Source of the DNA: Pseudovirgaria hyperparasitica
Taxonomy: Eukaryota
Reading direction: 5' to 3' (one strand)
NCBI GenBank assembly: GCA_010093815.1
Contig: ML996565.1
DNA length: 64,000 nucleotides
Both the position numbers and the translations under genes were made by a program. Under the pieces are notes generated by a model that saw only the letters and a program-made list of their open reading frames with translations, ran no database searches and was not told the DNA's origin. Below are positions 15,322 to 41,472 of this stretch, in pieces (the first letter of the stretch is position 1; every line of letters begins with the position of its first letter).

Positions 15322-16451
15322 ATGTTCCCTCAAAGATCCTCATGCGACCGTTGTCGCCAGCAAAAGGTGCGATGCCTCAAGAGTTGGGAACCATCAACAA
15401 CCGGTAGTGGAGGCGGCGGCCATCTTACCCCGTGCGACCGATGTGCAAAGGTGGATGCACCATGTGTATACAGCTGTATGTCTTGTGTCTCCATTACACG
15501 AGGTCTATCCACAGTGCTAGACACACAGAACTAATTACTCCAATGGTAGTGAGGCAGAGAAACAAACGATCAAAAGGGGAAGACGTCCCATCCCCGAAAG
15601 CGAATACGCAGCTCAAGCAGGATCTCCCAACGGTGCTATCAATTCCGGATGTTGCTGGATACGATATCAACGACTTGATGATGCCATTGCCACCGCTCGA
15701 CATGGACATAGTCTGTATCGATGATGGCGACACGTACAGCTGGAATAACGGACCGGGCCTCACATACAACGGCGATGATGACAGCATGACCCAAGAGAGC
15801 TCAGGAACCGGGCCAACACTTTCTCAAGATGAAAGCAAAGATACTTTAACAGAGCAGCTGATGAAGTTAAGTCAGCGAGCCACGAGGGCCACACGAGAGT
15901 TGGAGTGCGGAGAAATTGTTTTGCCATTGACAGTAAATTCACCTGTGGTGAATGAAGCATTCGAGACCGCGAATGCCTTGGTGCGCATCATCAACAGTAT
16001 GCCGCTGACGGACAGCACGTATGAGTCCTCATTATTGTCCCGCGATAGCAGTCAACAACAGCTACCAACTTTTCTGGCTCTAGCCGCCTATCAGTACGTC
16101 CTCGGCCTCTTTCGCGCAATCTGTGGATCTATCAAATGTTCCTCAGGATCAATAGCCCAGGGGATTGAGCTGCAGCAACAGACATTGCACGGTGCTGGCT
16201 CGTGCTCCGCGCAATTCATCATGGTTTTGCAGCTTATCATGCATCTCCTCAATCGCATAGGTCGTAGTCTTCGAACAGGGAGCCGAAGGAACTCGGACCA
16301 ACATGAGCTTGGGGGTGGAGAAGTCGGTAGCCTACAAGGTGTTGTCGATTCTGCTCAAGTCATGCTTAGAAGTATGACTGATGAACATGTCAAGCTCGGT
16401 GGGGTGATTCAGGATCTTCAAGCTGGGATAGAAGAAGGAGTTCATATGTAG
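15322..16451 (+). CDS. Zn(II)2Cys6 pathway-specific transcription factor, 351 aa
   Basis: Exon 1 encodes CDRCRQQKVRC-x19-CDRCAKVDAPC; intron 15476-15549 (GTATGT..CTAAT..TAG) joins in frame to the 15432-16451 ORF. Confidence 0.9.
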
Positions 16452-18336
16452 AATTAATGTAAAGTCGGAGAATATCTACAAATGTCTTGAAACCCCGAAG
16501 CCTCGTTGTGCAACAATGATCTGACTAAGGATGCAGTTGAAGAGCCGATTGCATAGAATCTTTGCTTTGATCTCATAAACTAAGGTCAACAAGGGCACGA
16601 GTATCACAGACTCGTTTCTTGACCAGCATAGCTTGCCTTGATGCGTGATGAAGACATGCATACAGCCGTATCTACGATACAGCCACTCAGAGGCAACTGT
16701 CCTACGTATCGCGAGCGATGCGGTTCGGAATTACTTAGACTCCTTCACAGGCTAGCTAACTGCCGATTCGTAATTGAAACACGTCTCTAAGAAGCCAAGT
16801 CTTCGAATGACCCCTTAATCAGATATATCACATTCGAACCTAGACTTGATAGGCGTTCCCAAGATTGTCTAATGTATTAGCCGATATCGGTTGAGATAGC
16901 TCTGAACTAGGCATCCACAAGCGGAGCCAAAACTTGCTTGTGACTCGACTACCCTGGCACATATGCTGAGTGAGGTTGAATCTGGTAAACATACGGATGG
17001 CACCAAGCCTATTGGAGTTACACTGTGGAGTATATGGACTCCCTGCATTTTCTCAAAACAGGGTCAGAAACAGGGTCAAGAATCAGCTGTCGATCTATGT
17101 TCGGTTAATCGACTCAGGGGTAGTTCTGGTCCTGCAAGCCAATATTGGCATGACTAAGTATCTCACGGCTTTGGCTTGTTCGTTCTTGGCAAGTCTTTCT
17201 ATAATATTCTAGACTAGCTTATAGGGTGCATGAACCAGGGTCCTGGATACCCGGCTCTGATATGGCTCAAGGAAATATCCCAGCTTTGATAAGACATCCT
17301 TGTCGATAAGCTTACAACTTGTCTGCAAGACATCCGACGTACTATGGTACTAGAAGGAGGTCCCACTGCGGGCCTACCCATAGTCCCTTGCGATGGATGC
17401 CGACGGCCATTGCCGCTCGTGGAGCTGCAAGGTAATCACTTAGCGCCCCTATCTCTCTATAGCAAGAATTTAGTATAGTATCAGCCGTCTTATATATTCA
17501 CTGTCCAATCACATGCTGGCTTGTTCAACGCCTTGTTTGTGCTTAGTCTTATGTATAGTGAACATCGATATTTATAACGCAGGACTCCGACAGTTGTAAT
17601 CAATGATTGTACAAATGTGTGTTTACGGTCCGTATTGTGTACAGACCAGACAATATCAAGTACTGCCTCGAGACGGGACTAGTGTCAAGTAATACAGCAG
17701 ATCTCTATTTAAAAATATACACGTTTCGGCGGCTACTCGCTAATCTCCACTAATCTATGATCACGAGCATGTGTCGTCTCGGTGCACTTGCCGGTGCTAC
17801 TCAAGTACTCGAGCTAAGAGTACAAAGGGTGATCTAATATATCTGGACACTTTTAAAACGGCTCAGGTTACAATATAAGTGATGCTGACATATACGACTT
17901 ACCGTTTAACGTTCATTCTCAATAAATGACTACATAAAATCGTTTGAAAAGCTTTCATTGTTGACCGTGATGGTCTTAGGTCCACTTCTCCGAGTCCTCT
18001 CTGCCTCTATTCGTGAATGTTCGGATTTCTTATTACACAAGGAATATTAACTAAATTGGCGAGGCCAATCTTCTGTCTGGGGTTCACATCAGAGAACTTT
18101 ACTTTCTAACGGGTCTACTAGAATGCCAAAGTCTGTCGACCTCAAAGTGAGGTAAAACATATATTCTAATGTTGCTAAGTTTCCCACAGACACTTGTATT
18201 CCTCACACATCGAAGAGAATTGTTTGCGCTAAGAACCATTCTATAAAACTAAGAGTTCAAGTCTACCACCTTCCTCTATAAGCTGATTTGGACGAGCAAG
18301 CATGAATATGCCTGAGAACTATGTTCTGAACCGTGT

Positions 18337-19508
18337 CTATGCGTCCACTAACGGAACCACCTGCCTCTTGGCACGTACATTCCCAACACGTAGATCGTTT
18401 ACGTACGTAGGAATACTCGCCAAACCTCCCGCCCTAATTTCCAAAGGATGATTCTTAATCCTGCCTTCGTTCAGCAACTTGTCTGCTAGGAGGAACAGAT
18501 TCAATCCAAAAGCTCGGTGCTCAGGGGTGCTAGGGCGTCCGTAAGTGCCCGGAATTTCAACTGGTGTTCCCATAATTGTAGGAGCCATCAACCAGTCGGC
18601 ACGGACATCTCGTCGCGTGTATTTGACGATAGGGCTAACAGCTTCGAGCGCGACATATCTGCCACCAGAAGAACCAATCGCCTCGTAGCACATCCGCATC
18701 GTCGATGCGTCGGTCACACAGTCGAAGACAGAGACAAGGCTGTTCGCGGTATACTCGCGGATGTCGGCGCCGCATGTAGACGAGCGGTAATCAAAGCATG
18801 CTGCGGCACCGAAGCTCTCGCATATGGCATTATTGGCAGGTGAACAGGTGACGATTGGTGTATATCCGGCTCTGTACATGTTCGAGTTAGTGAGATAACT
18901 CAGAAATACCACTTGCTTGTGCAACATATCATACTTGTACATATTGGAAAGGAGTAATCCACTTACATTTTGAGAAGCTGAGTGGCCATTGTTCCGGTAC
19001 CTGTTGCTCCTCCTGATACCAGCACGAATGAAGGTGTGTCTTCGGCGGATTTTGGACGTGGCAGTTCAAGGGCTAGCCCGGGTGCTTGAAAGAGAGCCAG
19101 TCCAGCAGTGGCAATGCCAAGACCCATTGAGCTTGCCTGTTCAAAGGATATGTTTTCGGGGACGTGGCAGCTTAAGTCCTCAGTCGCCAAGGCGTACTCG
19201 GCAAAAGCGCCCGCCGTCTTGTCTGAGGCGTTGAGGCCAAAAGTTACGGCGAGGATCCGGTCGCCTTTCTTGAACCTTGTAACACCTTCGCCGACTGAGG
19301 CTACGATACCAGCAAAGTCGCAGCCTCCTATTGCGCCAGGGGTATTCGAATAGTCTACGATCTTTGCGTCGTAGGGGCTCAGGGCGACTGAACGCACCTG
19401 ACACAGAATCATGCCCGGCTTTGGGGTGGGGATCTCGATATCGTCTGCGAGTCTGTAGCCGCCAGCCTCATCTCCGACGAGAGCTTTCATTGCTGTGCTA
19501 GGCTTCAT
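18337..19508 (-). CDS. Trans-acting enoyl reductase (LovC-like, MDR superfamily)
   Basis: VALSPYDAK, GCDFAGIV, GAFAEYA, VLVSGGATGTGTMATQLLK, FGAAACFDYRS; intron 18872-18966. Confidence 0.92.
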
Positions 19509-19715
19509 TGTTGAGTTGAGTTGTGTGTTGGGGTTTATGCAAAGAGAATCTGATCGAATCGTCTAGAAATATCGAAAGAAGATGTTGCTGGCTTATGTGA
19601 CTATGTAATCCAAGATCTGAACAATGATCGCAACTAGGGACTGCTCACTATATCTACTCTGTGCGATCATGTGGGGCCATTTGGGCCATCATAGTCAGGA
19701 ATTCCGTTCGGAGCG

Positions 19716-19743
19716 CCGACCGGAGGTCCCACGTCGCCTCCGA
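19716..19743. promoter_or_regulatory. Candidate Zn2Cys6 sites in the trans-ER/GST divergent promoter
   Basis: CCGACCGG at 19716 overlapping a CGGAGG-N10-CCTCCG inverted repeat. Confidence 0.4.
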
Positions 19744-19917
19744 AGACTGCTGAGCTGATACGGATTCCGGATAGCTTCCAGGGGTCAGTGGAGAATACTC
19801 TCCAACTCTAACTATCTGACGCCCCATCTGCAACTGATCTCACGACACAGTCACACTGACCATACTCCAACTTTCAGACTTAACCCATCAAAGGCTCGAA
19901 GACAAGTCTATTACACA

Positions 19918-20983
19918 ATGGCCTCGAATTTCTATCTTGAAGATACGCCGGCAGAGGTGAAGAATGCCAAGGTAAGTACTAGCGAGCTATAGTGTCCATT
20001 AGAATCTGTATCCGGAATTAACCAAAAGTGCTCAGGGGCTGCACCTAATTACTTCGAACACTCCTAATGGAAAGAAAGTGCAGATTATGCTTGAGGAGCT
20101 AAAGGAGTTGTATGGCACGGAGTGTTCGTAGATCTAACTCGTTTGTGTCTATGTACGAAGCCTTGACGGACCTAATAGACACTACGACAATAATCGACCT
20201 AAGTACCAACGAGCAGAAAAAGGACTGGTTCTTGAAACTTAACCCAAATGGTACGGGAGCGATATCTATACCTATGGATGATACTTATCTGCGACCGTAG
20301 GAAGGATCCCAGTTCTTATTGACAACACCCAAAATCCGCCTTTCCCAGTAATGGAGACTTCGGCAGAGCTGCTCTATCTCTTCAAGGAAGAAGACAAGAA
20401 GGCTGCGTTCGGCTACACCGATGATTATGGACGAAGCGAATGCCTGCAATGGCTTTTCTTCTGGCACGGCAGCGTATTGAAGTTTCTGCCGCCGATATGT
20501 CGTTTACACTAATAAAATTCTCAGGGTCAACCAATTCAAGGGCAGTTGGGCTGGTTCTCAAGAAATGCTAAGGACAATGAGGGTAAGTCATCAAAAAGTC
20601 ATTCCTAACTATGAAGCGTTTCTGACCGTCGCTGAACATAGTCGCTATCAATCGCTTCAAGAACGAAGTTCTTCGTATCTATGGTGTCCTTGAGCTCCAC
20701 CTTTCGGGTAAGTATACTGGCCAAGCTAAAGAATATCTTGCTGGTAAAGGCGCTGGCAAGTACTCTGTTGCAGACATCTCGACTTGGCGTAAGTGTTTGA
20801 TTCCTCAACAAGCAACGTAATTTGTATTGACACATGCAAGCTTGGTTAGATAGCTGGCACAAGATGGACCAGATCACTCAGGAGGACATGGACAATTTCC
20901 CACACTTGCAGAAGTGGATCGAACGTATCGGACAGCGGCCTGCAGTGAAACGAGGCACGGATCCTAAGACTTGGGCGATATGA
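19918..20983 (+). CDS. Glutathione S-transferase (Ure2/GstA-like), 7 exons
   Basis: Introns 19972-20035, 20124-20178, 20251-20300, 20474-20524, 20583-20641 and 20789-20840 give TPNGKKVQIMLEEL...WFLKLNPNGRIPVLID...METSAELLYL...LQWLFFWHGS...YLAGKGAGKYSVADISTWPW...FPHLQKWIERIGQRPAVKRG. Confidence 0.9.
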
Positions 20984-21349
20984 ATGCGTATGACCGTATC
21001 AAGATGATCTGAGATAATCAATGTCTTGACTTGAGTGTTAGCTGAGACCTTGAATGAACTATGAGGAGAAATCTATATTTGCTAAATTGAGAATCAACAA
21101 ATTCCTAAATAAAATTACTGCCTCCATGCAAGAAGTAGTCGTCCATCCATGGTTGTACCTTGTCTTCGTCGAACTTTACTAGAATATTCGTTTCCCTGCA
21201 TTAGCGTCTCCATCAATAGCCCAGCAGGGCAATAGTAGTAGGTTCGCCGACTTTGTAGAATCGTTCTGATGCAATCTATGTTGCATCCACTTTCGCTCAT
21301 CCTAGTGCGTAGTCAGCTTCCATATTCCCTACCCTGCATTCGCGGCGGC

Positions 21350-21403
21350 AGTCGGAACTTCGGTCGGTCAATTATGCACCAGATCCGATCGATCCGACCG
21401 ATT
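21350..21403. promoter_or_regulatory. Candidate Zn2Cys6 sites upstream of the dienelactone hydrolase
   Basis: Perfect inverted pair TCGGTCGG (21360-21367) and CCGACCGA (21394-21401), plus AGTCGG at 21350. Confidence 0.45.
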
Positions 21404-21545
21404 GTTATTTTTGTGTCGGGCGAACTCAAATTAGTGTAATCATATCATTCGTTCATCATTAGAGTGCCTCTTGTGGTATCCTCGTTGTTTGACATTCTCA
21501 ATCTTCAATACATCTTTACACTAATCTGCTCACATATCTGTCTCA

Positions 21546-22553
21546 ATGTCTTGTCCCGATTGCTTCCTTGGTGAGGTCTCTAAGGGCCAGCCAACTGGAA
21601 AGGAACTTGAAATACATGGCGTCCAAACCTACGTTACTGGGCCCGAAGCTGGTGTCAGTCCCAAGGGGATCATAGTCTACATTACCGATGCATTCGGCTA
21701 TGACTTTGTGAACAATCGAGTCTTATGTGACCAGTATGCTAAAAGGGGCTTTCTGGTCTACTGTCCAGACTTTATGAACGGTTTGTTTCACACCAAGACT
21801 TTTAGATTACATCCAACTTATAGATGCTAAGGCCGCTCCATGTCTCCTTCGATTATTGCTCCTATGCATACCATCTTAGAAAAGAAGTCATGGCTCTATA
21901 CTATCTTCGTCAAGCCATTCATACTTGTCAAGGTCCTCTACCACCTGATCCCCTGGTTTATGACGTGCAGCATCGCCAAGACGGAGGCCGGCGTAATCAA
22001 ATATTTCACGGCTCTTCGGACCTCGCCGCCTCCTTTCCAGACTAGAGACTTGAAGATTGGCGCTGCCGGATTTTGCTGGGGTGGAAAGCACACCGTCACC
22101 CTCGCACAAGACTATCCAGATCACCGCGTCACCCGACACTCATCCCAGAGCACCTCCTCGGCCCCTGAACCGCTTATCGACGCCGCCTTCTTAGTGCACC
22201 CAACCTTCATCAAGGTACCGGAGGACATTGACGCAATTAAGATTCCCATCTCCTGGTCCGTCGGCGAAGAGGACTTGCAGATGAAGACTGATGATATCAA
22301 GAAAATGAAAGCTATTCTCGAGAGCAAGCAAGACGCTGAGCACGAAGTCATACTTATTCCGGGTGCCAAGCATGGCTATGCAGTCCGCACCGATCCTGAG
22401 GATAAAGTTCAAATGGCAGCAGCGGAGCAGGCGGAGCAGCAGGCTGTGTCGTGGTTCTCGCGGCGCTTCACTCGTACACCTCGTACCGATGCTTCTCCCG
22501 TCGTACAGCGACCTGCCCAGGATCATTCAGCGAGCCTTTCTTCGGAATCTTGA
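21546..22553 (+). CDS. Dienelactone hydrolase family protein
   Basis: MSCPDCF start, TDAFG, YCPDF, nucleophile motif GFCWGG and HGYAVR; intron 21781-21831. Confidence 0.9.
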
Positions 22554-23117: not shown

Positions 23118-23843
23118 TCAAGACTCGGGGACCGAACCACCTGCCACGCTCTCCATCGTGCTTATAAGCAAGTATCCTCCGACCAGCTGAGCCAACGCAG
23201 CAACACCCTCTTTACCCAGCAATGCAACAGCGGAATCAAACTGTTTGTCTTTGATATTACCAAAGCCTCTTGCAACGCTCAACGCTAGCTCGTAGACGCA
23301 TTCCTCTCTGTCCGATAGGCCCTTTGGAAGATGCCCTGCGCTGGCTCGTTCGACTTGGTCCTGGGTCAAGCCTAATGATATTCCAATTTTCTGGTGAGCG
23401 TACTCGACGTAGTCACTCTTGGTGACAGAAACAGTCGCCAACGTGGTCAATTCGCGCTCCTTGGGGGTGAGGTGCGGCAGAGTGTAATAGGATTTTGAGT
23501 AGCTGAGGAACGGCTTGAAGGTTGATGGAGTGTAACAAAGAACTCCGAAAGGGCCGAGGAAGTTTCCCTGAGCGTCTTTGAATGAGAAACTCTCTCCTTG
23601 GAGCTCTTTGACGTCACGCTCTGTTTGCTCGAAAGCCTCTTTCTGTTCCTGGCTCCCAAAGACGGAGGGGAAACGGGGAGCTTTGGCAACCATTCTGGAT
23701 TCGTTGCGAATTGAAAATTCGTGTGAGGAAATAGCTGACACGGAAGACTGGTATCTAGAAAAATAATGAGACAATTTGAATGCAGATTTTGGGACCCAAC
23801 GTGTAACCGGGCGAGGGACAAGCGTGGCGACGTATTTAATCAT
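23118..23843 (-). CDS. Carboxymuconolactone decarboxylase / AhpD-like protein; start at 23843 or 23693
   Basis: GNFLGPF..L, LTPKERELTTLAT, YVEYAHQKIG..LGLT, FDSAVALLGKEGVAALAQLVGGY pattern of fungal CMD-like proteins; no CxxC motif. Confidence 0.8.
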   Translation of the reverse strand: MIKYVATLVPRPVTRWVPKSAFKLSHYFSRYQSSVSAISSHEFSIRNESRMVAKAPRFPSVFGSQEQKEAFEQTERDVKELQGESFSFKDAQGNFLGPFGVLCYTPSTFKPFLSYSKSYYTLPHLTPKERELTTLATVSVTKSDYVEYAHQKIGISLGLTQDQVERASAGHLPKGLSDREECVYELALSVARGFGNIKDKQFDSAVALLGKEGVAALAQLVGGYLLISTMESVAGGSVPES

Positions 23844-24100: not shown

Positions 24101-25102
24101 ATGGCACCTACTCGCGAAGACATTGAGTTCAAGACCCTTGCCGGCATCACCTTGCGTGGATGGCTGTACCCAGCCGAAAAACGTGGACCAGGAATCATCC
24201 TTTCTGCAGGGGTATGTAAATCACCACGTCTGAATTTTGAAGAAGACTCCAAAGCCGACTAATTTCGATACAGTTCAATATGCCTAAGGATGTAGTCGTA
24301 CCAGATATTGCCGAATGGTATCACAAGCGAGGTTTCACTGCACTCATCTTTGACACATATGGCATCGGTGCGAGTGATGGTCTACCCAGACATGACGTGA
24401 GTTATTCTTTGCAACACGAAGCCAGCCAATTAGATGTCAACTGACATGCAATCGTGGTGGTAGAGTGATATGCTGAGGCGCATTGACGACTTCACCGACT
24501 CAGTGACGTGGCTCTCCCAGCATCCCCTTATAGATCCGGAGAAAATCGCAGTTTGGGGTCTCTGTTTTGACGGCAACATTATGCTTGCCACCGCGGCATA
24601 CGACCGTCGGATTGCTGCCGTAGTAACGGTTGCCCCGATGATCGATGTTACTGGTGACCCCGAACGCCGCGAAGCCATTTTCGAACTTGGACTGGCAGAC
24701 CGCGCTGCCCAACTTGCTGGGGAGGATCCCATGTACCTACCTCTGGTTGATGAAGACGGCATGACGCCACTTGGTCAATTCTTAGGCAATTTCTTCACAA
24801 CAATGGATAGCATGAAAATGCCCATTGAGAACCGTGTCACGGTCCATACCTATATGCGATGCCTCAACTGGAACATTCTACACCTACTGCCAAAGATCAG
24901 CCCGACCCCAGTGATCATGGTGACGCCTGAGCTCGACCAAGTATTCCCGGCAAGCAGGCAGAAGGAAGCATTTGACTTGTTGAATGAGCCGAAGGAACAT
25001 TGTCTTCTGGTTGGAAAGCATCACTTTGACTGGATGTTTGGAGATATGGACAATGCGTTCAGTCCGCAATATGAGTTCTTGAAGAAGCATCTGAGGCTTT
25101 AG
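24101..25102 (+). CDS. Alpha/beta hydrolase 1, PKS-partner thiohydrolase family (Fma-AT/Bref-TH/GrgF-like), Cys nucleophile, 290 aa
   Basis: Exons 24101-24211, 24274-24396 and 24464-25102: EFKTLAGITLRGWLYP, GIGASDGLPR, IAVWGLCFDG, SPTPVIMVTPELD, GKHH; inferred triad C112-D236-H265. Confidence 0.88.
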
Positions 25103-25622: not shown

Positions 25623-26900
25623 ATGGTCTCCTCAGTGATCCCTGAATCAATATCCATTATCGGCGCCAGCGTGGGCGGACTCACGCTTGGTATCGTCCTC
25701 AAGAAATATGGCATTCAACCAAGGATCTTCGAATCACGAGAGCCAGGCTACGATTTCGGTGGTGCCGTCTCGCTTACTCCCAGCACTTTACGTATCATCG
25801 ACTCCATTGGTGCATACTCTCGCATCAAACCTCAAGGCTTCAGTTTCGAGGCCATGACATTCTTGACGGATCCTGAGCGCGAGACTACTGGTAAATTCTA
25901 CTTTGGACACAAAGACGTGTACGGGTACGATGGTCTGCGCATCACGAGGAAGGCGTTGCTCCACGAATTGACGGAAATGGCAAACGATGCTGGCGTCGAA
26001 ATCAACTATGGAAAAAAGTTTACCAAGATTGTCAATGAAACGACCGATGGTGTCATATTCGAATTCGCAGATGGGAGTCAGGAGAAAGCTCAAATGTTAA
26101 TTGGCTCCGACGGCATCCATTCGAAAGTCAGATCATGTATCTTCCCAGACATCCATCCACATTACTCTGGGTTTATAGGCCTGACGTACTGCTTCCCCCG
26201 CGATAATGTACGCATCGATGAGGGTTTCCCACTCCCAGTATCTTTGCGTGGGAGCCAAGGTGATGGCGCTATCATGCTACAACCTCAAACAGAAGGTGGA
26301 AAAGAGATTTTTGTAGGACGGCAGTTCAAGTTCGAAGAAAAAGATCGCTCAGGATGGGACAGTCTCTTGCAGGAAAAAAAAACTTTGATTGCAACCCTTC
26401 AGCGAGATTCTGCCGCATGGACACCACTTATCCAGAACGTGCTAGCACAAGCGAGCACTCCAGAGGCACATTTTCTGAACGTCTGGCCATTTTATACTGT
26501 TCCAAAAATGGAGAGATGGCATTCGTCAGCTGGAAAAGTGCTTATTATTGGAGATGCAGCACATGCTATACCACCTTCAGCAGGACAAGGCGCAAACCAA
26601 GCCTTTGAAGATGGTTACAGCCTCGCAATATTCCTAGCAAGTCTAAAGAATGTCCGCGTAAGCTTGTTGGATGCGTTGAAGACTTGGGAAGCCTATAGGA
26701 TGAAGAGAGTTGATGATGTATTGAAAATAACTAATCGACTTCTCACAATAAGGATGACAGAGGAGGAACTGGCGAGTGTTCCAAAGCACATGCAGTGGGA
26801 ACTCGATGGCAGTGAAGCGGGCAAGTCGCAGCTAGGGTGGCTATACCTTGCAGATATCGATCGCGATATCAAGAGTCTAGTAGAAAGTCTGCATATGTAA
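25623..26900 (+). CDS. FAD-dependent monooxygenase (class A, salicylate hydroxylase/KMO-like)
   Basis: IIGASVGGL, LIGSDGIHSKVR and IIGDAAHAIPPSAGQGANQAFEDG fingerprints. Confidence 0.92.
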   Translation: MVSSVIPESISIIGASVGGLTLGIVLKKYGIQPRIFESREPGYDFGGAVSLTPSTLRIIDSIGAYSRIKPQGFSFEAMTFLTDPERETTGKFYFGHKDVYGYDGLRITRKALLHELTEMANDAGVEINYGKKFTKIVNETTDGVIFEFADGSQEKAQMLIGSDGIHSKVRSCIFPDIHPHYSGFIGLTYCFPRDNVRIDEGFPLPVSLRGSQGDGAIMLQPQTEGGKEIFVGRQFKFEEKDRSGWDSLLQEKKTLIATLQRDSAAWTPLIQNVLAQASTPEAHFLNVWPFYTVPKMERWHSSAGKVLIIGDAAHAIPPSAGQGANQAFEDGYSLAIFLASLKNVRVSLLDALKTWEAYRMKRVDDVLKITNRLLTIRMTEEELASVPKHMQWELDGSEAGKSQLGWLYLADIDRDIKSLVESLHM

Positions 26901-27235: not shown

Positions 27236-28309
27236 TTAGAAGCCTAGAACATCCTTAAGGAACGCTAGCTGTCCGGTCAGAAGCTCATCAATGTCAACGC
27301 TCAAAAAGTTTGCGTGACCCCTATCTTTGACAATTTGGAATCTTTTCTGTGGTGATTGCAAACTGTCGTATATGCTCTTCTGATACTCAGGAGGCACAAT
27401 CTCATCATTCTCAGGTGTCAAAATCATGACCGGGGTGGGGCTGACAGATGCAAATAGGTGTATGGGCTTCCACTTCGCATGGCGATAGAAGCTCTGAATT
27501 GTGAGACTGTCTCTGAAGGTCGAGGCAGCCTTCTTGGCTCCGACGATCCAGTTGGGAAGGTGAGCCTGTTGCTCAGGCGTCATTTTGGCTAGGTAATTGA
27601 AGAGCAGGAAGTGCTCGCCCTTTTCATTGAGAAGGGGCATATACGCCGGCGGTTCGCCTCGAAGCTGGTTTGCTCGGTCCTCAACTGCTCGGGCAACGAG
27701 GTCCTCCTGATCCTTAGGATCCAGGTACCACTCAGGCATGAGGCCTTGCGCTATGACAGCTTTTATGCGCCTATCGAATGCTGCAGCCTCAAGTGCTATT
27801 CCAGAACTGTAGAAGAATCCCCATACGGCTATGCGGTTTGGGTCAACCCAGCCGTCGTTCTGCAAAAACTGTTTTCTATTGTTTAGTGTATTGTTTATAG
27901 AGCAACCGAAGTCGCATTGATAGGTAGATACATACCGTGACGGCGTCAGAGTTGTCTTCGGCCATCTTTTGTGGGTCCAAATCGGTTCGGGGCATGCCAT
28001 CGCTCGCGCCAATAGAACGAGCATCGTAAACAAGAGCTGTCAGCCCATGACGTCCGAACCAAGCCGCTATATTAGCCACGAAGATTTCTCTTGGGCACAT
28101 AAACTATTGTATAGAATATGACTAGGTAAGCAAAAGTACCAACTAATATTCTTGATAGATTATGAGGCGTTTGTCCATCAAGGAAAACTTACAGCACCGT
28201 TAACAATCACTGCAGGACCGCCCTTGGGGCCCACGAACAGCCAACCACGCAAAGTCAAGCCATCGAAGGTCTTGAACTCGACATCTCTGCGTTCTTGCTC
28301 TGCAGCCAT
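27236..28309 (-). CDS. Alpha/beta hydrolase 2, same thiohydrolase family, Phe at the nucleophile position, 305 aa
   Basis: Exons 28309-28193, 28103-27936 and 27868-27236: VEFKTFDGLTLRGWLF, SIGASDGMPR, IAVWGFFYSSG, SPTPVMILTPENDE, DRGH. Confidence 0.85.
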
Positions 28310-28912: not shown

Positions 28913-31900
28913 ATGGGCAGCTATCCTCAGTCTAACGATGGCCCACTTCGAGAGCCCATTGCAATCGTGGGAAGCTCTTGTCGCTTCCCAGGTGGTGCTA
29001 CTTCCCCATCAAAGCTATGGGATCTCCTCTCAGATCCCCGAGATCTTGTGCAAGAGATTCCCGCCAGTCGCTTTGATCCGAAGGTTTTCTATCATGAAAA
29101 CAGTCAGCACCATGGAGTATGTCCCGTTGGCTATCTCAAGAAACATATCTGAGTTCATTGGCTAACTGGTGTAACAACAGAGTATGAACACAAAATATGC
29201 TTATATTTTACAAGATGAACCGCGACTTTTCGACCGCGATTTCTTTAACATCAGCCCAAAGGAGGCTGAAGCGATGGATCCACAGCAGCGATGTCTTCTG
29301 GAGACTGTCTACGAGGGAGTGGAGTCGGCAGGTTACTCCATCCCTCAGCTCCAAGGGTCTTCTACTGGTGTCTTCGTCGGAGCAACATGCTTCGACTACC
29401 AGTCCATTGCAATGCGTGGCCTCGATAGCCTGCCGCAGTACTACGCCACTGGCGGGTCCATGGCGATCCTAGCCAACCGTCTATCGTACTTTTTTGACTG
29501 GAGAGGTCCGTCACTTGCCTGCGATACTGCTTGTTCGTCATCACTCGTGGCGCTGCACCAGGCAGTGCTTTCTCTTCGAAGCGGGGAAATCAACATGGCT
29601 GTTGCAGCGGGGGCAAACCTCATCCTCGGGCCAGAACTTTTTATCGCTTATTCGAATGTATGTTGTGCCATTAATGAGCATTCTTGGGCAGTCTCAGCTA
29701 ACATATGACATGATAGTTAAATATGTTGTCTCCCAATGGTCGATCCTACATGTGGGATTCATCTGCCGACGGATACGTACGAGGAGAGGGGTTCGCCTCT
29801 GTCATTCTCAAGACCCTTAGCCAAGCTGTTGCTGATGGTGACCACATTGAGTGTATTATCCGTGAAACCGGTGTAAACTCTGATGGTCGAACTCCAGGTT
29901 TGTAAGCCACGCTGTTCATAATGACGGTTGAATTAACCGTCATATAGGTATCACAATGCCAAGTGCAGAGGCGCAGTCCCAACTTATTCGAGACACATAT
30001 AAGAGATGTGGGCTGGATCCGGTGCGTAATCGTCCTCATTATTTTGAGGCTCACGGCACTGGTACTCCAGCAGGCGATCGTAAGTATACGATCATCACAA
30101 CAAAGGGATCTCGATGCTAAATTCCACCAGCTATTGAGGCACGTGCCATACATGATACTTTTTTCCCAGGACATCCAGGCCAGAATGACGGTCACCTCTT
30201 TGTAGGCTCATTGAAGACCATCATCGGACATACAGAGGGCACTGCTGGCCTCGCTGGAGTACTCAAAGCATCGTTGGCTGTTCAACACGGCCAGATCCCG
30301 GGCAACCTTCATTTCAAAGAGCTGAACCCGAAGATCCAGCCATTTTATAAGCATCTAAGGGTTCCAACAGGATTGACTTCGTGGCCCACTCTGCCCAAAG
30401 GGGAGCCACGCCGTGTAAGTGTCAACAGTGTAAGTCTTGACCTGCATCCAAATCGCAATTGAATCCTAATCTGAGGCAGTTCGGCTTTGGCGGAACCAAC
30501 GCCCACGCTATCATTGAGAGCTGGGATGGAGCATACGACCGCTATGCATCCTTGTCGAATCCGGGCGGACTTGTTGTCCTGTCTGCCAACTCGGCTCAAG
30601 CACTTGCAGCTAAAGCTACGACGCTGGCCGAATACCTACGGAAACATCCTGCTACAGATCTTGGGCGACTAGCCCGGACCCTATTCCAGAGAGGAGACTT
30701 CCTCTTCCGAGCCTCATTTGCCGCTGTATCTGCTGAGCAGCTTGCCGGAAAGCTTGAATCGCGCGCAGAGGCGCTCAAGAAGACTGCACGGATTCCAGCC
30801 ATTCCAAAGTCCCTACCGCCTCGTATCCTTGGTGTCTTTACAGGTCAAGGTGCCCAGTGGGCCACCATGGGCAAAGAACTCTACGAAGCATCATCTGTGT
30901 TCAGGAAGACGTTGGACCAGCTACAGAACAGTCTCGATACACTCCCTGAGAGCGATCGACCAAACTGGAAGCTAATCGACGAACTCTCTGCTCCAAGGGA
31001 AACATCCCGCGTTGGTGTAGCTGCCATCTCGCAGCCGATCTGCACAGCCCTTCAAGTCGCTCTAGTAGACGTTATCCGCGCAGCTGGAGTTGACTTTGCG
31101 GCCGTTGTCGGACACTCAAGTGGAGAAATAGCTGCATCGTATTGTGCAGGCTATCTTGACGCTCGGGATGCTATACGCGTTGCATATTACAGAGGTTTCC
31201 ATTCTAATCTAGCCCAATGCGATGGCAAGCGTGGCAAGATGATGGCCGTGGGCATGGGCTTGGACGCCGCGTTAGCATTCTGTGCTGAATTTGGCACAAA
31301 CCTCAAGGTAGCAGCCAATAACTCCACCACTAGCTGTACGCTGGCTGGTGATGCCAACTTGATTGACGAGGCCAAGGCTCAATTGGACGAGGACAAAGTC
31401 TTCGCCCGTGTCTTGGCAGTGGACACAGCATATCACTCTCATCACATGTTGCCATGCGCGGGTCCTTACCTTGAGTCGTTACGACAATGTGGAGTCAAAA
31501 CTCTGAAAGGCCCCAGAAAGTGCGAGTGGTATTCTAGTGTTTGGGGATCAAATGGCCGTAGTCGTTCTTTCAACGACGAGAAGGGCATGGAACTGCTCGA
31601 AGGCCAGTACTGGGTCGATAACTTGACCAACACGGTCCTGTTCTCCCAGGCAGTGAACCGAGCTGTGTCTGAAGAATCCTCAGTGTTGGACTTGGCACTA
31701 GAGGTAGGCCCGCATCCAGCTCTCAAGGGGCCAAGTTCCGAAGTGATCAAGTCTTTGACCGGCCTGAACCTTCCTTACAGCGGTGTCCTCAAACGCGGAG
31801 AAAGTGCTGTTGAAGCTTTTACCGATAGCTTAGGACTTATATGGTCCTCTTTCCCCTCGTCGCGTCCTCTCATCACTTTTGATGGCATATTACGGGCCTT

Positions 31901-34900
31901 GCCGCTGGCTAGTCCTAAGAAACCCAGCATTCTCAAGGGCCTACCAACCTATCCTTGGGATCATGATACCCTTAATTGGCGGGAGTCGAGAGCATCGCGT
32001 CTCTTCCGTGGTGGTCAGCCGCCCCACGAGCTGCTCGGTCGACCAACGATACTTGGTGAACAAGCTAGGCGAGAGGTCTATTGGCGCCAGGTTTTCAAAC
32101 TGAACGAGCTCCCATGGGTACGAGGCCATACCATACAAGGCGAAGTCCTCTTCCCAGCAACTGGATACTTGACAATGGCGTACGAGGCAGCAGTGCGTCT
32201 CGTCGATGACCAGGAGTCAATCCGTCTTGTTGAGCTCCATGATATCGAGATCGTGCGAACCATGGGCATGCAGGAAGACTCGTCAGGCCTGGAGGTTCTA
32301 TTCACTGTCCGCGTGACGGGTCAGACCGACAGCTGCATTACTGCCGAAGTGGCCTGTTACAGCGGCGACATTACCACGGCCAAGTTGGACGGCCCTGTGA
32401 GCTCGCTCACCGCACATTTCAGTGGTGGTGTGCGGCTTTTGCTGGGTCCAGCCCAGAGCGGCGACCTTCCCACCCGGAAGAAGCCTCTACTCCCAATGAA
32501 CACTTTGGATATGGACCAATTCTACGGTTATCTGTCGAAAGTGGGCTACAACTATTCCGACTCTTTCAAAGCGCACTCGGTTGATCGTCACCTCAACCAT
32601 GCCGTGGTATCTGTCTCGACACCTGCTGAATCTGCCTCAACATGTCCCTCAATGCACCCTGCAGTTCTCGACACCGCTATCCAAGGCCTCCTGGCCGCTT
32701 TTTCATACCCAGAAGACGGAAGGCTTGGGACAGTGTATCTCCCTACGGGCATTGATAGTGTCCGCATCAAAGTGGCATCTGACTCTCCCGACGTCTTGAT
32801 GGCAGACAGCGCTTTGACTTCCTCAGGGGAGAAGGGGCTCACGGGTGAAGTAGACCTTTTCAACGCAAGCGATTCAACTGTCCAAGTCCAAATGCGAGGA
32901 GTGAGCTGGACCGCCCTAAATCAAGGCCGGGAGCGCTGGCTATATGCAAGCGAGGAATGGGTACGAGACGCATCTCACGGCATCGAGCCTACCCTGAAGA
33001 CCAAGTTCTCTCCCGAAGATGAAGTGTTGCGGAAGCTCCTGGTACGAGTAGCGCATTTCTACTTACGCGCCCTTCGCAGCCAGATAAAGCCTTCAGAACT
33101 GATCGTTATGGGCAAACATCGTCGTCACATGATGAGATGGGTCCGTGAGCACCTGTTTCCCCAGATCGAGGCAGGCAAGGTGCCCGATATTGAGCCTGAG
33201 TGGGCGAATGATACGCTTGAAGAAGTGCAGCAATGGAGCGCTCCCTATATTGAAGCAGGAAACAACGACATGCTCATCCTGCACGCTGTAGGCAAAAACT
33301 TGCCTGCTATTGCTCGCGGAACTATGCCTGCCCTCCAGGTTATGCTTAAGGACGGCATGCTCGACCGTTTGTATGTGGAGGGAGTCGGTTTTGCCGACGG
33401 TAACCTTGATCTCGGGCCGTTGGTCAAGCAAGTTGCGCATCGATATCCCCGGATGAAGGTCCTCGAGGTCGGAGCTGGAACGGGTGGTACCACTCGCAGT
33501 GTACTTGAGTCTGTCGGCGACCATTATGGATCATACACGTACACTGACATCTCAGCCGGCTTCTTTGAGCCGGCAAAGGCAAAGTTTAGCGAGCACACAA
33601 GCAAATTGACGTTCAAGATGCTGAACATTGAGAAAGATCCGATAGAGCAAGGGTTCGTTGAAGGCTCATATGACATGGTCGTAGCCTCCAACGCGCTGCA
33701 TGCGACTCGATGCTTGAAAGATACGCTCAGCCACTGTCGCCAGCTGCTTCGACCTGGCGGATACTTGGTATTGCTAGAGATCACGACCAACCATCTGCCA
33801 ATTCAACTCATCATGGGCACGCTTCCTGGATGGTTCCTGGGCGCTGACGAAGGCCGCGTCTGGGTGCCTACGCTTAGTCTTGAGGAATGGGACAAGATAC
33901 TCAAAGAGACTGGATTCTCAGGTGTTGACACAAGCTCAACACCGTCCTTCTGTTCCGTCATCATGTCTCGGGCAACTACCGAGACCTTCGAAGCCATTCG
34001 AGAGCCACTATTAACTGCACCGCGCCCAGCAGCCCAGCCACTGGGTCCTGTTCTTATTGTCAGCAATGCGGCGTCAGAACTTGCATCCGGGTCACAAGCC
34101 CTCCTCACTTCCATCGAGGGTGTTACTCAATGCGATATTACAGGCCTCGAGGACATCAAGTGCCCCGTCGGAGCAGTAGTGTTGTGCCTCTCTGACCTGG
34201 ATAGTCCAGTCTTCGAGGAAATGACTGAAGCGAGATTCGAAGCTATGCAGACAGTCTTCCGCAATGCCAGCGTCGTTTTGTGGGTGACGTCAGGGGCAAC
34301 CTCGGGCAAGAACCCGCTGGCCAATGTGACAGTAGGATTGGGACGTACACTGCTGGCCGAACGTAGTGACTTGCAGCTTCAGTTCCTCGACGTTGATGAT
34401 CCAACATCTCTGGAGCCGTCTCTACTGGCGAAGCTTCTGCTCAGACTCACCGGAACAGATCAAGCTGATCTAAGCGAGATGCTCTGGACCCAAGAGCCTC
34501 TTCTTGCACTTAAAGATGGCGCGTTCTATATTCCCAGGGTTTTGCCTCTACAAGTTACCAGTCGTCAGTCTACAACGGAGCCATCCGTCGAAGTGGCAAC
34601 ACAAGATTCGGTAGAGAACGTCGTCACCGAAACCGGCCTTGATGAGCATAAAAGCACTTTCGCCGATAACAAGACCTACATCCTTTTTGGCATGACAGGA
34701 GATCTTGGAATCTCTATTGCTCGATGGATGGTGGAGAACGGTGCTCGAAACGTCGTGCTGACCAGCCGCCATCCCGATGTTCCGGAGGGAGTGTTCGAAT
34801 TTATGTCACAAAAGGGAGCCATACTGCGTGCCATATCAGCAGATGTTACGGACAAAGAAGGATTGAACAAGGTATACGCAGAGATCAAGTCGACTTTGCC

Positions 34901-36863
34901 ACCCATTGGAGGTATCATCAATGGCGCCATGGTACTCCGAGACCGCCCCTTTGTCGACACTACCTGGGACGACTTTGAGGCAGTACTTGCGCCAAAGGTT
35001 GCAGGGACTCGCAACCTTGATGAGCTCTTTGGTGAATCTGAGGCCCTGGACTTCTTCATTGTGCTTTCGTCTGCGACATCCATTGTGGGCAACATTGGAC
35101 AGTCAGCTTATAGTGCAGCAAACCATTATATGACAAGTCTCGTCAAACGTCGGCAGGGTCGTGGACTGGTTGGGTCAGTCGTAGTCATTGGCTTCCTGAC
35201 GGGCCTGGGCTACATCTTCCGTTCAGACAAGAAGCATCGCGCTGCCATTGAGAAGTCTCTCCTTCCACGGCTGGATCGACAAGCCGAGACAGATCTGCAC
35301 GATATGCTCATCAAGGCTATCGAGTGCGGACGACCAGAATCCAACCTACCATCCGAGCTCATCACTGGTATAAGGAAGAAGTTCACAGAAGCGTGGCACG
35401 AAGATGTGCGCCTATCAGGCTACCTCCTACAAGAAGGTGACAAGGAGGAAGGCGCCAGTCAGGAGCAAGCTGATGGGAATGTCAAAGTTGATATTCAGCT
35501 GGCTGCAACCAAGGATCCAAAGGAAGGTCTCGCAATCCTGATCAAGTGCTTCTCGCAAGCTCTGGGTAACATGCTCCAGCTCGATCCGGCCCAGATCAAC
35601 GCCGATATGCCTGTGGCTGAACATGGTGTTGACTCGCTCGTATCCGTTCGTATACGTGAGTGGTTCCTGAAAGAGCTCGGTGTTGACGTGCCGGTATTGA
35701 AACTCATGTCGACCAACCACACCATGTCGCGCGTATGCGAGGATGCCTTCGCAGGATGGCGAAAGCTTCGCTCAGGGTCTCAGGCAGAGTCCCAGACCGC
35801 TACCAAGACCCATGACGATCCAGAAATGGATTGGAAGAAGGAAGTAGCCGGGCTCATCGACGGCATTCCTGCCCTGGTCGCAGCTGGCGTTGACTCCGCC
35901 GACGTGCCTCGCACTAGCGCACGCCGCGTCGTCTTGACTGGATGCACAGGTTTCTTGGGTACGCACATACTTCGTAACCTCGTCGCAGACCCCAATACCG
36001 CAGAGGTGCACTGTCTCTGCCTTCGCTCGCGTCCTCTGCGCGTCAAGGACGCAAGGATCCACGAGTACAAGGGCGACCTAGTCAAACCGTTCCTGGGGCT
36101 GTCCGCGGCCGACTTCAAGCGCCTCAGCCAGACGGCCGACCTAATCATCCACGTCGGAGCCGACGTCGCGCATCTGAAATCGTACGAAATGATGCGAGCT
36201 GCCAATGTCATCTCGACGCAGACGCTGCTCGCGATGGCGACGCCACGCCACGTGCCCGTACACTTTGTGTCTTCGTCGTCCGTGGCAATGTTGCAGAAGG
36301 ATACAGCAGAGCTGTGGGAGGTGCCGCCGTCCAGCTTCTGGCCACCGTCGGATGCAGAGTCGCTAATGAAGAATGCGATTGGTTATGCAGCCAGCAAGTG
36401 GATGGGCGAGATCCTGCTGGAGCGTGCGGAGGGTGTTCCGGGCGTAGTCCATCGCTTCCCCAACATCATGGGGCCGGACGCACCCGAAGAGATCCCGCTA
36501 GTGGCCCTAGACCGCTACTGCATGAAGCTGCGGGCCGTCCCTGCGCTAGATCCCAAGCAGTGGGTCGGAGAGCTTGACGTCATCGAGGTTACTGACGTGG
36601 TGCCGGAACTCATGGCCACGGCGTATGCCCATGATCCCAGCAAGTCATTCGCAATTCACAACTACTGCAGCGAGAATAGATACTTGCTCTCGGATCTCGT
36701 GAGTATGTACAAGCAGAAGCTGGGTGGCACCGTTGAAGTCCTGCCGACACCTGAGTGGATGCGGAGGGCTAAGGACTTGGGCATGCCCAAGGGAGTGGAG
36801 GCTACTTGGACTGGGCACAATGAAGTGTTCATATCGCCTGTATTGCACAAAGGACAAAAATGA
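28913..36863 (+). CDS. Iterative highly reducing PKS, KS-AT-DH-MT-KR-ACP-R (ER domain absent), 2558 aa
   Basis: Exons 28913-29116, 29181-29657, 29717-29897, 29948-30079, 30131-30429 and 30480-36863. [89 protein letters not shown] domain [16 protein letters not shown]. Confidence 0.96.
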
Positions 36864-37766: not shown

Positions 37767-39770
37767 TCAAGCCTTGCTAGCAGCCTGCTTCTTTGCATTG
37801 ACATTATTCCACCTGGTGAGCATGCTGACAGGCACACAGATACCACAGCACGCGATTGTGATTGCAAAGGCAACCTTGATACCCCATGCATACGCGCGCA
37901 AGACGCCGTCGAGGTCGGCGCCGGTAAAGACGCGGTGCAGATCCGTGGCGCCGGTGGCGGTGACGAGGGTTGCATCGAGATTGGGTGCGGTGCTGGCGAG
38001 CTTTGCGACGAGTTGGTTGACGAAGCCGCACTGGGCGGCTGAGAGGAGGATTGTACCACCCATGGATCGACACCCTGGGAGAAGAAATTAGTAAAAGAGG
38101 CAGAAAGGGGGTAAGTAGGAGTGATGGCATGCTCGATCTGGTCGAAGGAGACTTACATATGATGATTGCCGTGGTGGGGGCTATATCAGCGGGTGCGGAG
38201 AAGGCCTGCGAGATGATGACGGGAACTTGCAGCGCGAGACCGTATCCAAAGCCGCCTAGGATCTGGTAGCCAACCCATTTGCCTGTCGATGTTCCAATGT
38301 CCATGGTGAAGAATAGACCGGCGGCGATGGTGACGATTACGGAGCTAACTGGCAAGTAAGGAGCTGCGACACCTGTCTTTGTGATGATCACACCCGAGCC
38401 GTATGTGGCGATGCCGAACAGGACGATGAGAGGGATGTTGCGGACACCCGAGCCAATCGGACTGGCGTTGTCGATACTTTGGAAATAAATGGGCAGGTAG
38501 TAGAGCGTGACGAAATAAGCGCCGGCAAAGAAGAAACCCCAAAGACCGTTGACCCAGACGTGTCGTTGACGCATCAGGCGAGGTGTTAGCATGGCGCGTT
38601 CGCCCTGCCAGATCTCTACTGCTGTGAGGACTCCAACGATGGCAACGAAACCGACGATCAATCCGATAACAAGACTAGAGCTCCACGGATGGGTCTGACC
38701 TCCATACTGAAGGGCTAGTAGCAAGGTGAGGGATGCACCCATGGTGAGCGTTGCGCCCAAGAAGTCCATTTGCAAAAGCTTCTCCTTTAATGTAGCTTGG
38801 ACCACCTTGGCAGCTGCAGGAGTCTTGAAGGTGACCAAAATGACAGCAGCGGCCAGACCACCGATTGGAAGATTGATATAGAAGCACCTAAAGTTGGTAT
38901 GTCAGACGAGGCCATTGCAGGAGCGGAAACTATGGAATAGTGCAACAAGGAAAAAGTAGTAAGTAAAACGTTGACTACTCACCATCTCCACGACGCTCCA
39001 TCAGTGAGTCCTCCACCAATGAGTGGTCCACACACAGCAGCAACACCATACGAAACTCCAATGACCGAGGTGTAGGTAGCTCGTTTCGTGGGCTCAGCCG
39101 CAAACGCCGAAATCGTGTAAACTCCAGGCGCAATACCCGAAGCACCAAGACCGGAAATAGCACGTCCAACGATCAGAGTCATTGAGTTCTGAGCGACTCC
39201 GCTGATCAAGCTTCCGAGTTCGAAGATGAAGATTGCGACCAGGAAGCTGGTTTTCAGTGGGAAGAATTTGTACACCTTGCCCCATAGTGACTGGAACGCG
39301 CCAAGCGTCAAGAAGTAAGCAGAACCGTACCACGAGATATCATCAAGCTTGTGGAATTGGTCCGTGATCTTTGGAATTGCGGTCGCGACGATGGTCTGCA
39401 TCGAGAGTGTTAGTTTATTAGCTTGATATACCACAGCGAAGACGACTCTGGAAGGGCGATATGAAGCAGAACTCACCTGGTCCAGAGAGATCAGTGTGAT
39501 ACTGAGTATGAGAGCAAGCATAATGAACAAGACCTCGATACCCTTTGGGTATGTCATAGGTTTCGGCGGCTCAGCGACAGGTTTCTCTTCGGTAGTAGCA
39601 CCATCAGCTTCAGGGGCATCTGATCTGGGTACACCATTGTCCGTCGAGGAGGCCGAAGAGGACATTTCGTTCGGCTTTTCCTTCTCAGGATCGACCTGGT
39701 GTGTATTGTCTCCCATATCTGCGAGCGTCCTGTCCTCTGGCAAGCGAGGCGGTGGTGTTGAAGGGGACAT
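37767..39770 (-). CDS. MFS efflux transporter (14-TMS DHA2, GliA/AflT-like)
   Basis: LDQTIVATAIPKITDQF, WYGSAY, GRAISGLGASG, GPLIGGGLT..SWRWCFYINLPIG, YYLPIYFQ; introns 39396-39476, 38888-38982 and 38075-38156. Confidence 0.93.
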
Positions 39771-41472
39771 ATCTGTTTGAAGGATGGTAAGAGTCTGTGT
39801 ACTTTGGAACCGCAGCCTCGAAGGATTCAGAGTGTGATGTAGAAAGTAGAAAAGAGAAATGTAAAATATGACCAAATATCAGTCAAAGTTGGCTTTTGAC
39901 TAGCGGACATGAGGATTTAGTACTAAAGGCGGGTAAGGCCTTTAACGCCGTTCATTCACTCCCCTGTCAAACCCCTACTAGCGTTAGATGCCGGAGCTAG
40001 ATGGATCTGATAGAAGGTCGTAAATCCGCTAACACCGTTCGTACTTACAGTGGATACAGTAAGATTCCGTTCACTCACCGACCGATTCGTGCTTCGGAGA
40101 TCATATGCAAGTAAGCTCTTCCGTCACCGTACACGAATCAGGTAATCGCGAGTGACCAAACAAGCTCCTTCGTCTTGCCTTTTGACCTTGCAACTTACTG
40201 TAATAGTTCGCATTCTACATACAACCAACTCAAGGCAAAAAAAAGGCTATATTCATAGTTATGCGCATCCATATACAACAGCAGACCTAGATGAAGGACG
40301 TCAGAGTGTACTGTGGGTTCACGAGTCAGTCATGATACAGCGGCACACGTGCCTTGACTCATGCGCGCCAATGACATCCATGATCGACCACATATACCCA
40401 CATATACATGGTGAGCCTCGACGCGGAGTGTCGTCAGAAAACAGGATAAGAAATTCCGACATGTTGCTTGGCGCGGTCCGATCAAGCCAAGGATTTTAAG
40501 ATTTGCCCTTTCTGTGCGGCGTGGCCCGACTCCCTAGGCTTACTTTCTTATATGGCGTAGATGTCTGCGACTCCGTGTGATTAAATGCCTTCATTGCTTC
40601 CAAGATGCTTAACGTGGCGTGATGCATTACCCTTATCGGAGCGATCATTTCTTGACAGAAGTCTTGTGCGTGTCTTGGTCGGCGGCTGATTCTCCTAACT
40701 CGACTCACTCAGCGACCACGAGATGCGTTCATTCACAGGATTCATCTTCAATGGTCGAGTGTTATACCGAATTTGCATGATGGAAGCATCTCGAAAGAAC
40801 AAGTGTTCATCGACCAGTGGTGGCTGGTGCATTAGACGGCGATAGGTCTTTAGATATATCCTTAACGGCAATATCGCTTACAATGATTCGTGTTTCAGGG
40901 AGAGAGACTCGTGCAACGGTATGTAGGAGCAGGGATTCTACAGAACCCGAAACTGGAGTATATTTCCGGTTCTTTTCCACTTGAGAAAAACTTTTCGAAG
41001 GTGATCTGCGGTTACATCCGTCGCTCGCAAGGCGTTTGTCGGAGCTAGTATAACTCTCATAGCATTGATATTGCGACAAGAGAATCAAATTTGCTGGAGA
41101 CATACAACGAACAAAAGGCTGCAGAAAGATGAACATATTGGAAAATGAAACAAAAAAGAGGACGACGACTCGTCAATTAATGCAACTGAATACCAAACAT
41201 TCGAAAACCAGGAACGCTTCTGACACCACGAAGAGATATGCCGCCCGTACGACCAGATCGCAAATCGATACTGTAGCAGTCGGAGTTATGGACACGAGTA
41301 CAGCGCTAAGTGATGCTACAGTAGTTCTGGAACAGCTCAGCAGTGATATAAATAATATTGAGGGTAAGTACCATAGGCCAAAAGGCACGCCGAAAATCCA
41401 TCGGTGTGGTACCGTATGGAAAAGTTTGAAGAACGATCGTAAACATGAATGTTTTATGCTACAGCGATATGA

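Follow-up and report, generated by a model that had tools for sequence, protein, structure and literature searches.

Analysis of a 64,000-nucleotide stretch of DNA from Pseudovirgaria hyperparasitica (the window) revealed that the alpha/beta hydrolase gene Hyd1 encodes a member of the same Cys-nucleophile clade as GrgF and lies in a conserved cluster with a HR-PKS that carries its own R domain. We propose, with a probability of about 0.5, that Hyd1 is a GrgF-type acyl-S-Cys enzyme that joins two chains from one PKS, and that the R domain releases the product. The family, clade, residues and splicing of Hyd1 are established here, as are the make-up of its cluster and the conservation of that make-up. 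To our knowledge, biochemical study of the Cys clade has been confined to GrgF, and few enzymes are known to join two polyketide chains.

The Hyd1 gene consists of three exons, and the two introns between them rule out reading its span as a single open frame. Its parts and the residues discussed below are as follows.

24101-25102, plus strand: Hyd1 gene, three exons and two introns, ATG at 24101, stop TAG at 25100-25102, product of 290 aa
24101-24211, plus strand: exon 1, residues 1-37, from the translation, agreeing orthologue N-termini and a splice joint in contigs
24274-24396, plus strand: exon 2, residues 38-78 (41 aa, FNMPKD...LPRHD), agreeing with the orthologue consensus and with both flanking joints in contigs
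24464-25102, plus strand: exon 3, residues 79-290 (Ser79 plus 211 aa) and the stop
24349-24351, plus strand: Phe63, clade-specific, Tyr in other clades
24479-24481, plus strand: Arg84, in exon 3
24563-24565, plus strand: Cys112 (TGT), within W-G-L-C-F-D-G-N
24569-24571, plus strand: Asp114, at +2 from Cys112
24935-24937, plus strand: Asp236, an invariant column among 16 aligned relatives
25022-25024, plus strand: His265, an invariant column in the same alignment

In two public runs from a single study, contigs connect 24211 with 24274 and 24396 with 24464, both joints having GT..AG ends; the kind of these runs is unrecorded and no record marks them as RNA, the spliced contigs alone serving as evidence. 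Because the contigs skip exactly the predicted introns, both introns are confirmed and a spliced transcript exists. The spliced product aligned end to end with full-length orthologues. Re-reading this product located the Cys elbow described in the initial annotation at Cys112, and the Asp and His that it had reported as retained are the two invariant residues, Asp236 and His265.

Comparison of Hyd1 with solved structures supported the earlier description of the enzyme as GrgF-like. The best match was GrgF itself (PDB 6lzh, E 8.1e-69 for exon 3), with identity at 100 of 205 exon 3 positions as counted from the alignment, and P0003, an orthologue of Hyd1 at 90% identity, scored 367 bits against GrgF over residues 3-290. 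This E-value, together with 44 Hyd1 homologues of which the closest is 90% identical, indicates that the likeness is not due to chance. The runner-up, 7d78 ("DltD domain-containing protein"; E 1.3e-29, 179 bits over the full length), belongs to the same family but has a Ser nucleophile, in the elbow W-G-M-S-F-G-G, and falls outside the Cys clade; we take it to be DcsB, a medium-ring lactone-forming thioesterase. Pfam returned partial superfamily matches alone (Peptidase_S9, BAAT_C, DLH and S15), and the match to DLH (PF01738; 23.5 bits against a cut-off of 21), which spans profile positions 78-128 of 217, represents superfamily-level likeness near the elbow.

The wider family, comprising 668 relatives at E 0.001 or better among 1.84 billion representatives, usually uses Ser, as had been stated in the initial annotation. 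Among the 181 elbow-aligned members of 194 pooled proteins, the nucleophile position was occupied by Ser in 131 and by Cys in 44, and 40 of the 44 Cys proteins were Hyd1 and its close relatives, all with W-G-L-C-F-D-G. This elbow was also present in all nine of nine orthologous loci. Hyd1 does not fit the Ser-type pattern W-G-x-S-x-[SGA]-G, its nucleophile being Cys, and it departs from the GrgF pattern G-x-C-x-G-G in having Asp at +2. A wider search yielded three Cys elbow types, C-F-G, C-W-G and C-F-D.

In a tree of 71 rows, built by a quick method with SH-aLRT support, all 35 Cys rows formed a single clade (support 99), within which the C-F-G and C-W-G rows clustered together (support 99). 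Hyd1 fell in a starred set of 14 Asp-type (C-F-D) rows; the Asp-type rows comprised two starred groups, the union of which had a support of 66. The C-F-G branch beside the Asp-type branch is that of GrgF: it contains P0345, which scores 576 bits against GrgF (6lzh), as well as FFUJ_12241 of the fujikurin cluster (P0451, CCT72379.1). FFUJ_12241 has a C-F-G elbow and lies within the 90% cluster of P0346. The tree thus places Hyd1 inside the Cys clade with the GrgF-like P0345, but in the Asp-type branch. Fourteen positions set the Cys clade apart, being shared by 33 or more of 34 members and by at most 3 of 13 Ser-type relatives; all 14 are present in Hyd1, and they include Pro41, Trp52, Asn116, Arg146, Trp268 and Phe270 (Hyd1 numbering).

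Several unusual homologues were observed in these searches. An orthologue from a marine metagenome (L005:10001-10633) has the elbow W-G-L-C-F-D-G-D, with Asp in place of Asn at Cys+4, and no PKS was found within 10 kb on either side of it. Two Asp-type models are over-long, P0362 from Aureobasidium melanogenum (519 aa) and P0198 from Cladorrhinum (647 aa). P0362 also matches ADH_N and ADH_zinc_N, and may be a trans-ER fused to a hydrolase or a product of merging by annotation.

The Asp at +2 had been put forward as a possible sign of new chemistry, a suggestion that the distribution of this residue does not favor. At nine positions, at least 15 of 16 Asp-type proteins carry a residue that none of 18 C-F-G and C-W-G proteins has, the most telling being Asp114 (Gly in C-F-G and C-W-G proteins), Arg84 (Gln) and Phe63 (Tyr in every other group). 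Asp114 is thus fixed throughout its subclade and changes in concert with Arg84 and Phe63. Arg84 lies at the start of the helix preceding strand 5 and Asp114 in the first turn of the helix that follows the nucleophile, and in the alpha/beta-hydrolase fold these two helices run side by side on the edge of the active site. Judged by sequence co-variation, the most likely partner of Asp114 is Arg84 on the adjacent helix, an arrangement that would structurally replace the Gln/Gly/Tyr set of GrgF; the Asp114-Arg84-Phe63 trio looks like a compensated buried contact and may tune the thiol. Because Asp114 co-varies with Arg84 and Phe63, a structural role is more likely than new chemistry, and a role as a new catalytic residue is disfavored. 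As to the related statement that +2 is usually Gly or Ser, Ser is the commonest residue at +2 as well among the 181 elbow-aligned members, and Gly is not the norm.

A strict tie between Asp114 and the R domain was also considered and is weakened by the basal Asp-type member from Verticillium dahliae (P0196), which is 58% identical to FFUJ_12241. The fujikurin-like PKS of V. dahliae is listed without R in the available excerpt of PMC9495618, and the V. dahliae hydrolase probably serves this R-less PKS, so that Asp114 is not clearly tied to R.

The genes around Hyd1 form a cluster with the following members.

15408-16451, plus strand: probable cluster regulator with a CcsR_C/AflR-like C-terminal region, from Atlas neighbours (0.96) that carry CcsR_C
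18337-19562, minus strand: LovC-like trans-enoylreductase (trans-ER), Pfam ADH_N and ADH_zinc_N, LovC 3b6z at E 2.6e-36
21525-22553, plus strand: dienelactone-hydrolase-family protein (DLH; accessory), Pfam, with a Cys elbow G-F-C-W-G-G
23118-23843, minus strand: CMD/AhpD-like protein (CMD; accessory), Pfam
25623-26900, plus strand: Group-A flavin monooxygenase (FMO; accessory), Pfam and PDB relatives, covered by the run contigs
27236-28309, minus strand: Hyd2, a paralogue of Hyd1, exons 28309-28193, 28103-27936 and 27868-27236, product of 305 aa
27814-27812, minus strand: Phe at the nucleophile position of Hyd2, in W-G-F-F-Y-S-S-G, with Asp and His retained
28914-36863, plus strand: HR-PKS with several introns, KS-AT-DH-CMeT-(psiKR/ER0)-KR-ACP-R and no ER, from Pfam, start codon and motifs
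about 35934-36860, plus strand: R domain of the PKS, NAD_binding_4 at E 2.4e-33
37804-39878, minus strand: MFS transporter, Pfam

A Pfam scan of the regulator ORF at 15408-16451 gave no match, and a scan of the gaps at 16451-18337, 19562-21840 and 39878-41473 gave no further cluster genes apart from exon 1 of the DLH gene. The PKS was identical over 451 compared aa to a 2558-aa NCBI protein from P. hyperparasitica (P0223). Its R domain, which shares one 2140-aa open frame with AT, DH, CMeT, KR and ACP, looks as intact as was first reported: in addition to the NAD_binding_4 match, it contains the NAD(P)-binding motif TGCTGFLG and the YxxxK motif GYAASKW, both of which are kept in 37 of 37 PKS orthologues (P0223-P0259).

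Conservation of the cluster was assessed in nine metagenome loci with orthologues (L001-L009), representing about five distinct contexts, and the set that recurred comprised the PKS, trans-ER, Hyd1, regulator and MFS transporter, often with Hyd2. A PKS lies beside the Hyd1 orthologue in L002-L004 and L006-L009, with the R part included in L008 and L009; the trans-ER is conserved in L001-L003 and L005-L009, the regulator adjoins Hyd1 in L006-L009, and the MFS transporter is conserved in L005, L008 and L009. Among these loci the FMO is confined to L002-L004, and the CMD and DLH genes are limited to L001-L003 in addition to the window; Hyd2, FMO, CMD and DLH are not within range at every locus. 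Equal length of the longest contig served as a proxy for a shared contig; by this measure, a PKS-R orthologue accompanied 12 of the 44 Hyd1 homologues, whereas three C-F-G hydrolases, relatives of GrgF, co-occurred with PKSs lacking NAD_binding_4. From this proxy and the co-occurrence at the loci, an Asp-type Cys hydrolase and an R-bearing PKS form a conserved pair, which is not an accident of a single genome. Between Dothideomycetes, Penicillium, Clonostachys, Xylaria, Cadophora and lichen-forming fungi, Hyd1 and the PKS show 75-90% identity, a level unusually high for such distant hosts, which suggests strong constraint or horizontal transfer.

The cluster core of ER-less HR-PKS, trans-ER, regulator and MFS transporter is that of the gregatin (PMC8902786), fujikurin (PMC9495618, PMC10657286) and fusamarin (PMC10947347) clusters, as these are described in the available excerpts of the cited articles, and beyond the gregatin and fujikurin core the Hyd1 cluster adds the PKS R domain and the Phe-type paralogue Hyd2. 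For gregatin, the excerpts describe how GrgA, when helped by the trans-ER GrgB, makes a pentaketide and, in its absence, a diketide, both of which are fused by GrgF (PMC8902786) in a Claisen-type reaction (PMC12304814), with grgF governing condensation, grgG forming the furanone ring and grgD encoding an O-methyltransferase (PMC10288003). All three sources agree with what the initial annotation had stated, namely that a Claisen condensation by GrgF joins two chains. GrgF (from Penicillium sp. sh18, gregatin A) has the same fold and length as Hyd1, with about half of the residues identical, and alignment offsets give its triad as Cys115, Asp240 and His269, the Cys being equivalent to Cys112. 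The two enzymes share the monophyletic Cys clade, its signature residues and the combination of partners, an ER-less HR-PKS and a trans-ER (PMC8902786). They differ in subclade, in the elbow (C-F-D-G in Hyd1, C-F-G-G in GrgF), in Arg84/Phe63 as opposed to Gln/Tyr, and in the Phe-type paralogue, a feature of the Hyd1 cluster.

The other two clusters also show likenesses to that of Hyd1, and fusamarin, and probably fujikurin too, are described as assembled from two chains from one PKS (PMC10290801, PMC10947347). FFUJ_12241, annotated "polyketide transferase", belongs with the fujikurin PKS19 of Fusarium fujikuroi, in a cluster of PKS, trans-ER, hydrolase, TF and MFS (PMC9495618, PMC10657286); it is a Cys-clade member, 46% identical to Hyd1 exon 3, but has a C-F-G-G elbow and a 27-residue insert after helix C, and PKS19 is listed without R in the excerpt of PMC9495618. 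FmFmn3 of Fusarium mangiferae, compared with Hyd1 by description, is an alpha/beta hydrolase with a "peptidase" annotation, encoded beside the fusamarin PKS8, a trans-ER and a TF, and its deletion abolishes the products (PMC10947347). Its authors, who propose that one PKS makes both chains, attribute their fusion to the KS and off-loading alone to FmFmn3 (PMC10947347).

Together, Cys-clade membership, the 14 signature residues and the gregatin/fujikurin-like cluster core make chain fusion by Hyd1 plausible on sequence grounds. In the mechanism that we propose, the ER-less HR-PKS would act iteratively to make two different chains, the LovC-like trans-ER taking part in only one of them. Hyd1 would move one chain from the ACP onto Cys112, giving an acyl-S-Cys112 intermediate with the triad completed by His265 and Asp236, and would pass this chain on to the second one, a beta-ketoacyl chain bound to the ACP, at its activated alpha-carbon in a gregatin-like Claisen-type C-C fusion. 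The R domain, and not hydrolysis, would free the joined chains as an aldehyde or alcohol, and Hyd2, in some lineages also FMO, CMD and DLH, would act on or with the fused product. Our inferences concern the origin of both chains in one PKS, their fusion, the sequence of steps and what R does; the order of fusion and R release is guesswork.

Several observations weigh against this proposal: the elbow has Asp at +2 where GrgF has Gly, the intact R domain could render a hydrolase dispensable for release, the monophyly of the Asp-type rows is weak, the basal V. dahliae member probably has an R-less PKS partner (PMC9495618, in excerpt), and Hyd2, FMO, CMD and DLH do not accompany Hyd1 within range at all orthologous loci. 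A literature search, supplements aside, found no activity, product or labelling data for Asp-type members and no characterised cluster of the Hyd1/PKS-R type.

A somewhat unlikely alternative, though the strongest of those considered, is that Hyd1 is a plain trans-acting thiohydrolase that clears stalled or wrong chains, or frees one short chain, and forms no inter-chain bond. Plain hydrolysis or editing is possible because GrgF, in a JACS study of 2020, reportedly carried out hydrolysis as well as fusion and because the wider hydrolase family consists mostly of Ser-type chain-releasing or acyl-transferring enzymes. The Ser elbow of the second PDB match, 7d78, fits such a role, and the fusamarin hydrolase is discussed as an off-loading enzyme in the excerpt of PMC10947347. 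The restriction of Cys to one clade nevertheless argues against it, the named members of that clade lying in the gregatin cluster, for which fusion is shown, and in the fujikurin cluster, for which it is only proposed (PMC10290801, in excerpt). Further arguments for fusion over hydrolysis are that Hyd1 retains the clade signature residues shared with GrgF and that it is kept, across loci, next to a PKS already equipped with a release domain that is likewise conserved.

Distinctly less likely is a polyketide acyltransferase that would form a C-O bond by esterifying the chain on Cys112 onto a hydroxyl, for example that of an alcohol from double reduction by R. The database names "polyketide transferase" and "acetyltransferase fmaC", given by similarity only, occur in the family; Fma-AT, a possible member, moves a polyketide to fumagillol (PMC8902786, in excerpt); and the R domain could provide the alcohol acceptor. 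The nearest characterised relative of Hyd1, however, forms a C-C bond, and nothing points to double reduction by the PKS R domain. Finally, a decaying or silent copy without a role is highly improbable, since, despite a contig depth of 3-6 compared with 23-50 for the neighbouring FMO, a poor measure in itself, the Hyd1 frame is intact and correctly spliced and the protein shares 75-90% identity with its orthologues in many fungi, the triad residues all being invariant.

Hyd2 may contribute to the chain fusion proposed for Hyd1. Both of its introns are skipped in contigs of the two runs, and the F-F at its elbow was invariant in 10 of 10 relatives. In the 71-row tree, Hyd2 proteins formed their own clade (support 100), which joined the Cys clade and one Ser-type row at a support of 97. 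Complex prediction with the Lecanosticta orthologue pair P0033 and P0377 gave a pass, with 0.83 against 0.00 for the best control, at a level attained by 51 of 78 solved complexes and, among mismatched pairs, by 2 of 108, and the runs had contact agreement of at least 93% and partner pLDDT of at least 87. Structures of the family have been solved as multimers (two chains for GrgF and six for 7d78), and because a homodimer of the family, once solved, may account for this outcome, we regard the pass as a lead and not as evidence of a heterodimer.

It is a tentative and rather doubtful extension that a Hyd1-Hyd2 heterodimer, likened loosely to the ketosynthase/chain-length-factor pair of type II PKSs, would serve as an off-line condensing unit that fuses two chains of one PKS and returns the product to the ACP for reductive release by R. 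If true, Hyd1, Hyd2 and R would make up a three-part fusion-and-reduction machine leading to an aldehyde or alcohol metabolite common to many unrelated ascomycetes, including lichen fungi. One idea for the role of Hyd2, by analogy, comes from PyiE/ORFZ of the cytochalasan clusters, incomplete-triad alpha/beta hydrolases that work alongside a PKS(-NRPS) from which R releases an aldehyde and that aid the C-C bond-forming Knoevenagel step (PMC7898483, in excerpt); with this functional precedent, Hyd2 might help C-C bond formation on an R-released aldehyde. PyiE/ORFZ belong to a different alpha/beta family, absent from all Hyd1 search results, and they keep Ser and lack His and Asp, the reverse of Hyd2 (PMC7898483). 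The Hyd2 gene is divergent to the PKS start. In run X1, one 3124-base contig extends from 27086 to beyond 28500, covering Hyd2 and continuing towards the PKS start, although contigs cannot tell one transcript from several.

The Hyd1 locus is a GrgF-type system with a reductive release domain and a nucleophile-less paralogue, widespread and, supplements aside, uncharacterised in the literature. With 75-90% protein identity across distant fungal classes, it defines a distinct and strongly conserved cluster sub-family that bears on the generality of Cys-clade fusion, on the coupling of fusion to release and on a metabolite common to many fungi. For genome mining, the elbow type (C-F-D or C-F-G), read along with Arg84 and Phe63, also offers a sequence rule.

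An aconitase gene (47628-49790, plus strand) lies 11 kb from the cluster, and the fusamarin cluster in Fusarium likewise has an aconitase gene at its border, the deletion of which was without effect (PMC10947347, in excerpt). Given that result and the WD40 and glycosyltransferase genes that intervene in the window, the aconitase was rejected as a cluster member, and the neighbour shared with the fusamarin cluster is probably a coincidence.
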